Positions 15,292 to 58,687 of a DNA stretch of 63,174 nucleotides are shown piece by piece. Made by a program: the position numbers and the translations under genes. The DNA lies in the NCBI GenBank assembly GCA_030324005.1, contig JARDVH010000121.1, forward strand, positions 5,681,144 through 5,744,317, given 5' to 3'. The stretch comes from Negaprion brevirostris. Taxonomy: Eukaryota. Below the pieces are notes generated by a model. The model saw nothing but the letters and a program-made list of their open reading frames with translations, was not told the origin of the DNA and made no database searches. How positions within the stretch are numbered: the stretch's first letter is position 1; each line of letters starts with the position of its first letter.

Positions 15292-15639
15292 TATGATGTG
15301 GAGATGCCAGCGTTGGACTGGGGTAAACACATTAAGAACAAAACAAAGAACAAAGAACAGTACAGCACAGGAAACAGGCCCTTTGGCCCTCCAAGCCTGC
15401 GCCGCTCATGCACCTAACTAGACCATTCGTTCGTATCCCTCCATTCCCAGTCTGTTCATGTGGCTATCCAGATAAGTCTTAAAGGTCTTAAAGAAGTCCA
15501 AGGTTAAAGTCCAACAGGCTTATTTGGTAGGACAAGCCACTAGCTTTAGTCTGTGTCGATAGTGTCACTCTGAAAGTTAGTGGCTTGTGCTACCAAATAA
15601 ATCTGTTGGACTTTAGACTGGTGTTGTGAGATTTCTTAC
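15292..15639. mobile_element. Penelope-like-derived palindromic element, copy 2, carrying a nested CR1 3' end (~15338-15487, minus)
   Basis: Starts TATGATGTGGAGATGC. Has a ~45-bp inverted repeat (ggttaaagtccaacagg..caagccactagcttt / aaagttagtggcttg..ctgttggacttta). TSD-like tgttctactt/tgtcctactt. Splits the gag zinc knuckle. Confidence 0.7.
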
Positions 15640-15912
15640 TGTCCTACTTGACTAGAGTGAAAACACCTAAGGCTTTTTTATTTCTCTTCCACCGTCAGTG
15701 GTTTTCTTTTTAACCTGAGGTACACTATCTTTACTATCTGCTGTGAGATCTCATTTACCCATCCCACCTGAGATTATCTCTTTTCCCCAGTTTCTATCTG
15801 TTGCAGTTTGAAATTGGTGTTGGAAACTTTGATTTATGAACAAATTCATAATCACCTGCCATTTCTGCTGCTAACCTCACAGTTTTAACCCTCTGATTTT
15901 CCACATGAGTTT

Positions 15913-21902: not shown

Positions 21903-21966
21903 ATGGATTGCAGTTGTGTCTCTGATTTGCTTCTCACTCCACCTCTGCCCACCCTATGGACTCCAG
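21903..21966 (+). CDS. ERFL: ERFL first coding exon (MDCSCVSDLLLTPPLPTLWTP-G, phase 1)
   Basis: Strong Kozak context (atcaccATGG). The translation matches the ERFL N-terminus as recalled (MDCSCVSDLL...LWTPG). Donor CCAG|gtatta at 21966/21967 is phase-compatible with the acceptor at 58488/58489 (G|GC = Gly). An upstream acceptor tttctttctag ends at 21881. Confidence 0.9.
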
Positions 21967-45947: not shown

Positions 45948-46141
45948 AGGGTAGCGCGGTGACACAATGGTTAGCACTACTGCCTCACAGTGCCAGGGGC
46001 CTGGCTTCAAATCCAGTCTTGGGTCACTGTCTGTGTGGAATTTGCACGTTCTCCCCGTGTCTGCGTGGGTTTCCTCTGGGTGCTCTGGTTTCCTCCCATA
46101 GTCCAAAGATGTGCAGGTTAGGTTGATTGGCCATGCTAAAT
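45948..46141 (+). mobile_element. V-SINE, 3' part in gap
   Basis: Head and core present. Confidence 0.88.
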
Positions 46142-46241
46142 NNNNNNNNNNNNNNNNNNNNNNNNNNNNNNNNNNNNNNNNNNNNNNNNNNNNNNNNNNN
46201 NNNNNNNNNNNNNNNNNNNNNNNNNNNNNNNNNNNNNNNNN

Positions 46242-47339
46242 TTATGATTTTGGAGTGCCACCGTCCGTATGGCTACGACTTCAGCTGAAACTTCGGAGAT
46301 AGCAGTGCTCACCTCCTCTAATCCATCCGCAGTGTCATTAGCTATCTTCTCATGAGCTGATGCCATATTGATCAACTCTCGAGCTGTCTTTGCTGTCCCA
46401 CAGGCAGGAAAGGCTATCATCCAAAACCATTGAGCTTCAGTGATGGCCCGTTTAGATCTTAACAGGTATATCTTGTGGTGGAGATGCAGAGAGTCATAAT
46501 GTCGGACATAGGGGACCACATACGCGAGATAGCAAGATCCAGACCAGTCCCAGGGAAGCCAAGGATAGGCATTATCTCCACAGACAAAATAGGTGCCATT
46601 ATACACTATCACATCGTCTAATAGGCTGGGATTGGCTGGGAAACGGTTGTCATTGGGGCATGTAATTTTTGTCCCTTCCCAACCCTAACCTTCACATTCC
46701 TTTGATAAGAGAAAGGCATTCTGTATGAACATCCCAGTTTGTGTAGTGGAACAAAGAATCTTATTTTCTTTCTGACTGGGATAGGTAATATTAAACTACT
46801 GAATGCAGTAGCTACAGCCAACGGGTATGGTTCCATTTCTTATCGGGCAGATAGATCCTCTTTGTTGATTTTTTTACAACAATGTGGGGTGGGGAGTCTG
46901 ATCTATCTTATTTGGGTTGGTAATGGTTCTTAAAAGAATTTGTTATATTACACCTCTCTGCAAGTTGAGCGATTTTTTTCTTGCCCGAAGGTACCCAGAG
47001 AGGGACATCTTGTCCGTTAACTTTTATGAAGCCCGTAGGCTTGAACACAGCCCTCATTCCGTTTTTAGTTTTGTTTTGATACAAAATCCATTCTATAATT
47101 TCCTGGAGGTTGAGAGGAGCAGGGAACAGAGGAATCCCTTCTTTAGTATGTAGTGGTATGTGTGAGCTGACCCAACACCCACTTACATTAAACGTTACAG
47201 CATACTCATAAGACATGTACAAAAAGGTGTTAGAGTGAAATCGTCCATTAGTCAGTCCATCTTTCAAACTCCTCTTCTGTACTGGTTTGGAGGGTGGGAA
47301 AAGGGCCAGGAGGCCAAGAATTAGGAAACACGCCTTCAT
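46242..47339 (-). pseudogene. env: Frameshifted gamma-type retroviral env
   Basis: Signal peptide MKACFLILGLLALFP; CWVS at the CXXC position (47166-47177); NGTYFVCG..LPWDWSGSCYLAYVVP; furin site RSKR (46448-46459); fusion peptide; heptad repeat ending VALQNH at the gap. The N- and C-terminal ORFs are in different frames. Confidence 0.9.
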
Positions 47340-48043
47340 GATGAATCACTTAGCTGTGGGAGTCCACCGCTTGCAATCAACGATTCTGTCCTTTAACTGC
47401 CACCGGAGTTTGGAGAAGCACTTGAAACGGTCCTTTCCACCTTGGTCCAAGTTTGGGGCAATCCCATCTCGAATCAGCACGAAGTCTCCTATCTGCGGTC
47501 CAAGGAAGTAGTCCTGTGGGTCAGAATCTTGATTCGGTGTCCATGGAGTTGATCCAAAAGCGCACTGTACCTGTGAATGAAGAAACTTTAAAGACAATGT
47601 TAGCCGTCGGAAGTACTTCTACATTTTATCACCCATAACGTGTAAATCTATCTGGGTGGTTGGGCTTATATTTGCATCCCAGGGTGCCCTACTGAGTCGG
47701 CCTTAAATTATTTCTGCCGCCGAAAGTCCAGTAGTAGAGTGGAGCATTATTCTCATGTGGTATAGAACTAGGGGCAAAACCTTTAACCAGTTAAGGCCGG
47801 TTTCAGACATCAGCTTAGTCAGTTTAGCTTTTAGAGTTCCGATAGCTCTTTTCATTATTCCTGCTGCCTGGGGATGGGAGGCACAGTGGAATTGCTGTTG
47901 GATGTGTAACACATCACACAATTCCTTATTGACTTTTCCTACAAAGTGGGGGCCATTATCTGAACATTATCTGCACCCCAAACCTCGGTATTACTTCAGT
48001 TAGTAACAATTATTTACTGTGCGCAGTTTACTGTTTACAATTT

Positions 48044-49311: not shown

Positions 49312-49926
49312 TTAGAATCATAGAAAAACTACAGCACAGACAGGCCCTTTGGCCCACAAGTTGCGTTGATCTTGTCTCTACCTACCTATAACCCTCAATC
49401 CTATTAAGTCCCATGTACTCATCCAGAAGTCTCTTAAAAGAACCTAATGAATTTGCCTCCACCACCACCGACGGCAGCCGATTCCACACACCCACCACCT
49501 TCTGAGTGAAAAACCTACCCCTGACATCTCCTCTGTACCTACTCCCCAGCACCTCAAACCTGTGTCCTTTTGTGGCAGCCATTTCAACCCTGGGGAAAAG
49601 CCTCTCAGAGTCTACCTGACCAATACCTCTCATTATCTTATACACCTCTATCAGGTTCCCTCTCATCCTTCGTCTCTCTCAGGAGAAAAGATTGAGCTCT
49701 CTCAACCTATCCTCATATGGCATGTCACCCAATCCAGGTAACATCCTTTTAAATTTCCTCTGCGCCCTTTCAGTGGCTTCCACATCCTTCCTGTAATGAG
49801 GCGACCAGAACTGAGCACAGTGCTCCAAGTGGGGTCTGACCAGGGTCTTATGCAGCTGCAGCATTATCTCCCGACTCCGAAACTCAATCCTTCTATTGAT
49901 GAAGGCCAGTACACCGTAAGCCTTCA
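49312..49926 (-). mobile_element. 5'-truncated CR1/HER1-like LINE, same family as 48044-48572
   Basis: LVRPHLEHCAQFWSPHYRKD..RGRFFTQKVV. Confidence 0.93.
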
Positions 49927-49936
49927 TTCAGGGGAA

Positions 49937-50090
49937 TGATGTGGAGATGCTGGTGTTGGCCTGGGGTGGGAACAGTAAGAAGTCACCAGGTTAAAGTCCA
50001 ACAGGTTTATTTGGTAGCACAAGCTTTCAAAGCACTGCCTCTTCATCAGGTGAGACTTTAACCTGGCTTTGTAAGACTTCTTACTTTGCC
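49937..50090 (-). mobile_element. Penelope-like-derived small element, copy 3
   Basis: Starts TGATGTGGAGATGC. Inverted arms agtaagaagtc..ccaggttaaagtc / gactttaacctgg..gacttcttact. TSD-like ttcaggggaa/ttcagaggaa. Confidence 0.75.
50018..50052 (-). ncRNA. Minimal type I hammerhead ribozyme motif
   Basis: Minus strand reads CAC CUGAUGA A GAGGC AGU GCUUU GAAA GCU U GUG. It has intact CUGAUGA and GAAA boxes, a wobble-rich stem II, a palindromic AGCU in place of helix III, and a 3-bp helix I (CAC/GUG). Confidence 0.65.
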
Positions 50091-50716
50091 TTCAGAGGAA
50101 CATTACGTTTTCCATACCTGTAAGGTCAGTTGATCATGGAGTTTGCTCCAATATCCCTTTTGATATTTGTCTCTTGGCTGATATTTTTAAAAACATTTTT
50201 TTTGTGTCCATTCACCTCACTGCTCTTGTTTGTGTGTGTGGTCAATTGTTTCCAACATTTGCTGCACTACCTGCCTTTCAAAAATGCTTTATTTTCCCGC
50301 AGGCCCTGTGGGCATCCTTACACCTTGAGTAGCACACTTCCGAGATGCATTGTCTCGCTCTTTCCCCTTTAACAATGCCCACATTTACCCCAAAAGCCAA
50401 ACGCAGCAAAGCTTGCAACGTTTCCGTTAAACACTGGAATTAATCAGCACATCAGCTGGAATCTATAGCAGGAGAAACAGAACATTAAGGTTATATGTGA
50501 AAGAGTGAAAGGGGATGATATACAGTGGATTAGGCAGGCAGGAGAGATTAAATGACTAAGCAATGGTGTTGCACAGCCACAAAAAGAGGTAATGATGTGG
50601 CGGCTGAATGGCAGCTTCCGCCCTCCTCCTACTCCTCCTGGCTACTGCTCTGCTCCTCCCTGAGTCACGCTCAGTGTGAGCTGAAGGAACACCACCTTGC
50701 CCCTCGTCACAGCGCA

Positions 50717-58488: not shown

Positions 58489-58687
58489 GCTTCGCATTCC
58501 CGGACTGGGCCTACAAGCCGGAATCGAGTCCCGGATCCCGGCAGATCCAGCTCTGGCACTTTATCCTGGAGCTGCTCCAGAAGGAGGAATATCAGAACGT
58601 TATTGCCTGGCAGGGAGATTACGGGGAGTTTGTCATCAAGGACCCAGATGAAGTGGCCAAGCTCTGGGGCGTCCGCAAGTGCAAACC
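58489..58687 (+). CDS. ERFL: ERFL second coding exon, N-terminal part of the ETS domain ([66 protein letters not shown]); 3' end lost in N gap
   Basis: ERF/ETV3/ERFL-family ETS sequence. Branch-point-like cctaac at 58452-58457, pyrimidine tract, and acceptor cag ending at 58488. Confidence 0.95.

Follow-up and report, generated by a model that had tools for sequence, protein, structure and literature searches.

The 154-base insert at 49937-50090 of the window, the 63,174-nucleotide stretch of the Negaprion brevirostris genome analysed here, is very probably the ribozyme-bearing pseudo-LTR (pLTR) of an abundant, decayed Penelope-like element (PLE), present as two head-to-head pieces within a 10-bp target duplication and likely deposited in a single target-primed insertion by the element's own reverse transcriptase (RT) and endonuclease (EN). 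The insert belongs to a very common and already described kind of jumping element, and is an ordinary and likely dead member of it. An earlier reading made from the sequence alone (the sequence-only reading) had noticed a 154-bp insert with inverted arms and flanks of about 10 bp that resemble a target-site duplication (TSD), and its outline holds in the exact boundaries given here:

49937-50090: insert of 154 bases, two head-to-head mirror-image pieces in an intron
49927-49936: target-site duplication, left copy TTCAGGGGAA, matching the right copy at 9/10
50091-50100: target-site duplication, right copy TTCAGAGGAA, matching the left copy at 9/10
49937-50054, minus strand: direct arm, assigned to the PLE 3' terminus (pLTR), 118 nt, tailed, ending just inside the position of the ORF start codon
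49937-49972, minus strand: tail of ~36 nt, on the direct arm only, spanning the family's two preferred 3' ends
50006-50011, minus strand: AATAAA hexamer, seen in the sequence and conserved in the family copies
50017-50053, minus strand: minimal type I hammerhead with stem I CAC/GUG, CUGAUGA, an extra A, a 5-bp stem II, GAAA and a palindromic AGCU
50054: head-to-head junction with 1-nt microhomology
50054-50090, plus strand: inverted arm, a second copy of the terminus, 37 nt, tail-less, 5'-truncated and without the ribozyme

Inverted repeats connect 49986-49998 with 50054-50066 (13/13 positions) and 49969-49984 with 50075-50090 (14/16), and the insert folds far better than shuffled sequences on either strand (z = -3.9 on the minus, -4.2 on the plus). 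Compared with most copies of the family, the direct arm has lost 7 nt between 49983 and 49984; its 5' end at 50054 lies 34 nt upstream of the predicted ribozyme cut, within a hot spot of 5' ends in the family. The AATAAA hexamer, by its sequence, is a possible polyadenylation signal. Directly adjoining the left TSD is the truncated end of a highly repeated LINE-like RT fragment (window ~49382-49926, minus strand), which is without a Pfam match and which we take to be CR1-type.

The sequence-only reading had suggested looking for the arm genome-wide and for a linked ORF with RT and GIY-YIG domains, and both searches were productive. In the 2.69-Gb assembly, a 31-nt piece of the insert has 13,560 exact matches and the 25-nt piece beside it has 16,150, with none for either reversed control. 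Among the 30 best window-like loci, 8 share further upstream sequence and 2 of these reach a GIY-YIG-like frame; in thirty longer copies the sequence continues as far as linker and RT frames. From the side of the protein, 19 loci were picked by RT similarity alone from 151 RT matches (a twentieth, chosen via the terminus, was left out); in 15 of them the terminus follows on the same strand, no more than 2.8 kb downstream, and the four without it hold 1.1-2.3 kb of N. The RT gives an RVT_1 match that passes the Pfam cut-off (E 6.9e-08). A GIY-YIG motif is visible in translations of the EN frame, which in the Atlas resembles GIY-YIG clusters (0.95 for one in which 42% of members carry PF01541); a Pfam search of the decayed EN frames returned no GIY-YIG match. 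Translations of several copies carry a Cys-rich linker, C-x4-C-x2-C, between RT and EN.

Longer copies also establish where the terminus sits within the element. At loci L308 and L321 it passes through the ATG into the N-terminal portion of the ORF; both align to the region upstream of the RT of L087, and L308 aligns onward to that RT itself. Because longer copies carry the terminus 3' of the RT/EN ORF as well as ahead of the start codon, it is a pseudo-LTR. The element unit measures ~3 kb, and all RT copies seen are broken or decayed, with ~65-80% protein identity to the query. The earlier view holds in that the motif is a Penelope-type minimal hammerhead and the insert, flanked by a TSD, a product of retrotransposition. 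There are other traces of the element. Inverted, 5'-truncated copies of 1-3 kb lie directly upstream of RT-bearing copies at L088, L090, L102, L103 and L104. The window itself holds another, tail-less and single-armed copy of the terminus at 13736-13834 (minus strand), of a different stem II subfamily with a longer loop and with A at the cut site, as well as a head-to-head pair of the same terminus at 15293-15642, split by ~150 nt of another repeat.

These features are those of a known class. Insertion units of endonuclease-bearing (EN+) PLEs of the Neptune and Penelope/Poseidon clades are described in PMC8557442 and PMC3846280 as having an inverted pLTR, a one-sided tail of 30-40 bp and a short TSD of 9-10 bp. 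The present family shares with these units the inverted arm, the one-sided tail of ~36 nt, TSDs of 9-14 bp, a pLTR that extends to the ORF start, TATA- and Inr-like motifs in the pLTR and, as in Neptune, a Cys-rich linker between RT and EN. Such a linker is given as a mark of Neptune-like elements in PMC3846280, and it is this linker, rather than an RT tree, that suggests a Neptune-type assignment. Unlike in those EN+ PLE units, both arms of the insert (118 and 37 nt) consist of nothing but the terminus. Solo minimal hammerheads have been read as truncated PLEs by Cervera and de la Pena (2014, PMC4209133). With solo hammerheads, inverted pLTRs, tails and TSDs already in these three papers, the insert belongs to a described kind rather than to a little-described system. 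In the literature outside most subscription journals and supplements, we found no paper on the shark-type family or on the 5'-end hot spot of PLE stubs.

The ribozyme itself is laid out in full on the minus strand, where 50053-50017 read UCAC-CUGAUGA-A-GAGGC-AGU-GCUUU-GAAA-GC-U-U-GUGC, with a palindromic AGCU helix III and a predicted cut after CUU, between 50021 and 50020. The minimal type I hammerhead named by the sequence-only reading is therefore present on the strand and with the cut site that it gave. That reading had also looked to hammerhead models for support; an Rfam scan of the window gave no match at the gathering score and eight weak matches at E<=10, none of them a hammerhead, and the motif is borne out by its sequence layout instead. 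Folding of a monomer does not recover it, an outcome to be expected when helix III is missing, and no partner ribozyme was found near the window copy on the same strand, as tested. Compared with the metazoan PLE hammerheads in the available text of PMC4209133, in which sharks are unnamed, the window copy differs by its G-U pair at position 10.1-11.1 and by a stem I of 3 bp. Three of the five stem II pairs are G-U, the stem is the second-weakest among 46 fully paired rows of the family (-1.5 versus -5.8 kcal/mol for the best), and the hammerhead pairs have a predicted probability of 0.02 or less within the fold-back. The earlier remark that this copy may be weak or inactive agrees with these values: it is probably weak, and we infer that it is probably inactive.

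Across the family, 127 of 197 upstream stretches could be parsed as the motif, the others being truncated, masked or too decayed, and 116 unique copies were retained. The parser permitted up to 3 core mismatches, so that core conservation is partly built in, and left N7 and N17 unconstrained. At N17, U/C/A/G occur 42/39/32/3 times among the 116 unique copies; at N7, U/C/G/A occur 71/31/7/7 times; and U16.1 is present in 112 of the 116. Stem II covariation was scored on 90 ungapped rows, comprising the window copy and 89 unique copies whose stem II-loop is 13 nt long. These rows, which are related to one another, contain 27 cells changed on both sides versus 12.0 ± 2.9 after shuffling (0/500), while the number of stem II pairs with a double change was not above shuffles (260/500). 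Pair 4 changes from G-C to A-U in 9 rows, and some U-A at the CpG pair of the stem may be decay. The conserved boxes and stem II covariation on which the ribozyme claim had been staked are thus seen in the core, in the NUH cut site and in the excess of double-changed cells. Judged from sequence variation, these signs fit selection for cleavage in master elements, and the hammerhead of the insert would be inherited cargo, probably functional in those master elements as a dimer or with the assistance of protein. The family also contains stem II subfamilies (L134, L218, L247, L270 and others) with a 4-bp G-C stem, a 4-nt loop and G-C to A-U swaps, and some subfamily copies carry an extra 6-7 nt just 3' of the cut site.

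The architecture of the insert recurs throughout the genome. In a sample consisting of the first 100 exact matches on contig C1, 3' ends are bimodal, at about -37 and 0, defining two sites ~37 nt apart. An inverted arm is present at the 5' junction in 45 of 97 loci, and a tail is carried by exactly one arm in 36 of the 40 inverted insertions that could be classified. TSD scores of at least 8 were obtained for 18/36 inverted insertions versus 0-4 in eight mismatched-flank controls, and for 6/39 simple insertions versus 0-1 in controls; the window's own TSD scores 7, just below this cut-off. With its tailed 118-nt arm, tail-less 37-nt arm and 1-nt microhomology, the window's insert reproduces this architecture on a small scale, and most genomic copies are such stubs, many with one common start site.

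A biochemical counterpart is available in PAc, a Poseidon element from Anolis carolinensis, for which Frangieh et al. (2024, PMC11167929) report that both target strands are cut and extended, that RT starts at two internal sites and that uncleaved RNA is the main template in vitro. The family's two 3' ends correspond to the pair of internal RT start sites that flank the tail in PAc. In the same account, the PAc ORF begins from stem II and RT starts inside the ORF, whereas here the ATG lies at the tail end, ~90 nt 3' of the cut.

We propose that the stubs arise in a comparable manner. The endonuclease would nick both target strands ~10 bp apart, and each nick would prime a cDNA at one of the two internal start sites on the pLTR RNA, one at the tail end and the other at the tail-less end. 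One cDNA would be a run-off product, ending where an uncleaved transcript begins just upstream of the hammerhead; the other would stop early, and the two would be joined via microhomology. The stubs would then constitute a fossil 5' RACE of Penelope RNA. They would be strong-stop-like run-off cDNAs, primed from the internal start sites of the upstream pLTR on RNA that the ribozyme had not cut, and the near-strict pairing of a tailed with a tail-less arm would mean that a single concerted reaction primes the two target strands from different start sites. We consider the chances of this reading to be evenly balanced. Inverted arms of 1-3 kb show that there are routes other than run-off at the RNA start.

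The position of the 5' ends bears directly on this proposal. Ends were mapped with subfamily-aware natural references in two samples, A and B, which share some loci and of which B was anchored further 3'; the counts leave out copies ending at N (9/100 and 12/100) and those extending >76 nt upstream of the cut. Positions -38 to -32 from the cut account for 29 of 80 ends in sample A (uniform expectation 6.7) and 25 of 78 in sample B (5.0), with p ~1e-11 each, a significance that the uniform null overstates, and divergence between subfamilies can cut local alignments short. In long copies the hot spot holds an Inr-like CCACT ~31 nt behind a TATA-like tract. From the sequence and the end positions together, the hot spot likely marks the start of the element RNA, and the short copies probably arose as run-off cDNAs with uncleaved RNA as their template, in agreement with PAc in vitro. 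PLE transcripts start in the upstream pLTR according to a review (PMC6765202), and a rotifer pLTR has a TATA and TCACT pair (PMC3846280); the D. virilis promoter is TATA-less (PMC2377424).

The fold-back could instead have formed by self-priming or template switching of a single cDNA, possibly on an antisense transcript, in which case the hot spot would reflect RNA processing or a protein block rather than a transcription start. We regard this as unlikely. A splice-donor-like CAG/GTGAGT on the opposite strand does coincide with the hot spot, an intron end in D. virilis maps to the 5' end of helix I (PMC4209133), and the authors of PMC3846280 prefer to explain head-to-head junctions by self-priming on an antisense template. 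However, the sense strand has no AG acceptor before the hot spot, the spacing from TATA-like to Inr-like motif fits a core promoter, and two priming events agree with the strict one-tail asymmetry and with 3' ends that face outward and carry TSDs. Self-priming would in any case alter the mechanism only, not the identity of the insert. A donor-like CAG/GTGAG is also found in the window at 50047-50055 (plus strand), on the element's antisense strand, which is the sense of the host pre-mRNA, and in intact copies a short ATG-led frame precedes the donor-like site on the antisense strand.

The sequence-only reading had favoured a non-autonomous, retrozyme-like family, which would require pLTR-only RNAs from short copies to be re-mobilised in trans by PLE protein, in the manner of a separate retrozyme-like or SINE-like family. 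Most sampled copies are indeed short, extending >76 nt upstream of the cut in only 11/91 and 10/88 cases, and many of them have one common 5' end. PMC3846280 adds that pLTR sequence alone can suffice in cis, and a preprint (bioRxiv 10.64898/2026.07.22.740005) derives animal retrozymes from pLTRs. The repeated 154-nt unit, however, did not materialise: a genome-wide search with the exact fold-back junction gave 2 matches versus 13,560 for the body, the second having its own TSD and different stem II variants. In two more of the 30 best window-like loci the junction recurs with mismatches, as microhomology explains, and elsewhere junctions differ from copy to copy. A tandem piece lies directly 5' of the copy in just 1 of 100 sampled copies, whereas retrozymes are tandem units with a hammerhead in each, as the preprint describes them. 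The insert shares with animal non-LTR retrozymes its non-coding nature, a type I hammerhead and pLTR-related sequence, but unlike them it is a single fold-back that holds one ribozyme and is flanked by a TSD. Copies that begin at the Inr are, moreover, without the upstream TATA-like box and should not retranscribe themselves. Together with the terminus contiguous with the RT ORF (15/19 loci), this makes the separate family quite improbable.

Still less credible is an origin of the short copies from ribozyme-cleaved RNA, with 5' ends recording cleavage in vivo: sample A has 9 of 80 ends within 2 nt of the cut (4.8 expected), but at least 2 of these 9 are alignment artefacts, the density just downstream is equally high, sample B has 0 of 78 (3.5 expected) and the window copy retains the whole ribozyme. 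An apparent peak of 5' ends at the cut site came largely from subfamilies with the 6-7-nt insertion 3' of the cut, combined with a nearby anchor, and is absent with an anchor further 3'.

The insert lies in the first intron, ~36.5 kb long, of a gene whose two predicted coding exons are both on the plus strand of a window that contains N gaps:

21903-21966, plus strand: first coding exon of an ERF-family host gene, short, with a GT donor
58489-58640, plus strand: second coding exon with the start of the ETS domain, phase-compatible, its end hidden by an N gap

The best PDB match of the ETS exon is ERF (E 3.5e-17). Because both exons are on the plus strand and the motif is on the minus strand, the ribozyme is antisense in the first intron, and for the same reason it is not produced by host transcription. 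Of the earlier description, an antisense position in an ERFL intron, the orientation and the first intron of an ERF-family gene are borne out; from the N-terminus, the gene is presumably ERFL rather than ERF. The same intron contains a low-complexity, short-period AT-rich satellite of ~21 kb (window ~24300-45900) and broken retroviral env-like frames (46136-47618, minus strand; weak TLV_coat match, E 0.0011), with more frames up to ~49262 that are broken up by LINE-like pieces. In contigs from three public runs (X1, X3 and X5), which differ from the window at ~4-5% of bases, the unique right flank is contiguous with the inverted arm; the insertion is therefore older than the split of those genomes from this one. 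No contig among those of four public runs reaches from one flank to the other, and none shows an empty site.

Taken by itself the locus is minor, one of tens of thousands of dead stubs and antisense to its host gene. The stub population as a whole is of some use for understanding how inverted PLE structures form and what the hammerhead does in vivo. If the proposed origin of the stubs is true, this fossil 5' RACE would read out the PLE promoter, the priming of the second strand and the absence of the ribozyme from integration in vivo. The end positions point to an uncleaved RNA whose start lies immediately upstream of the ribozyme, and to arms that were primed in two different ways.
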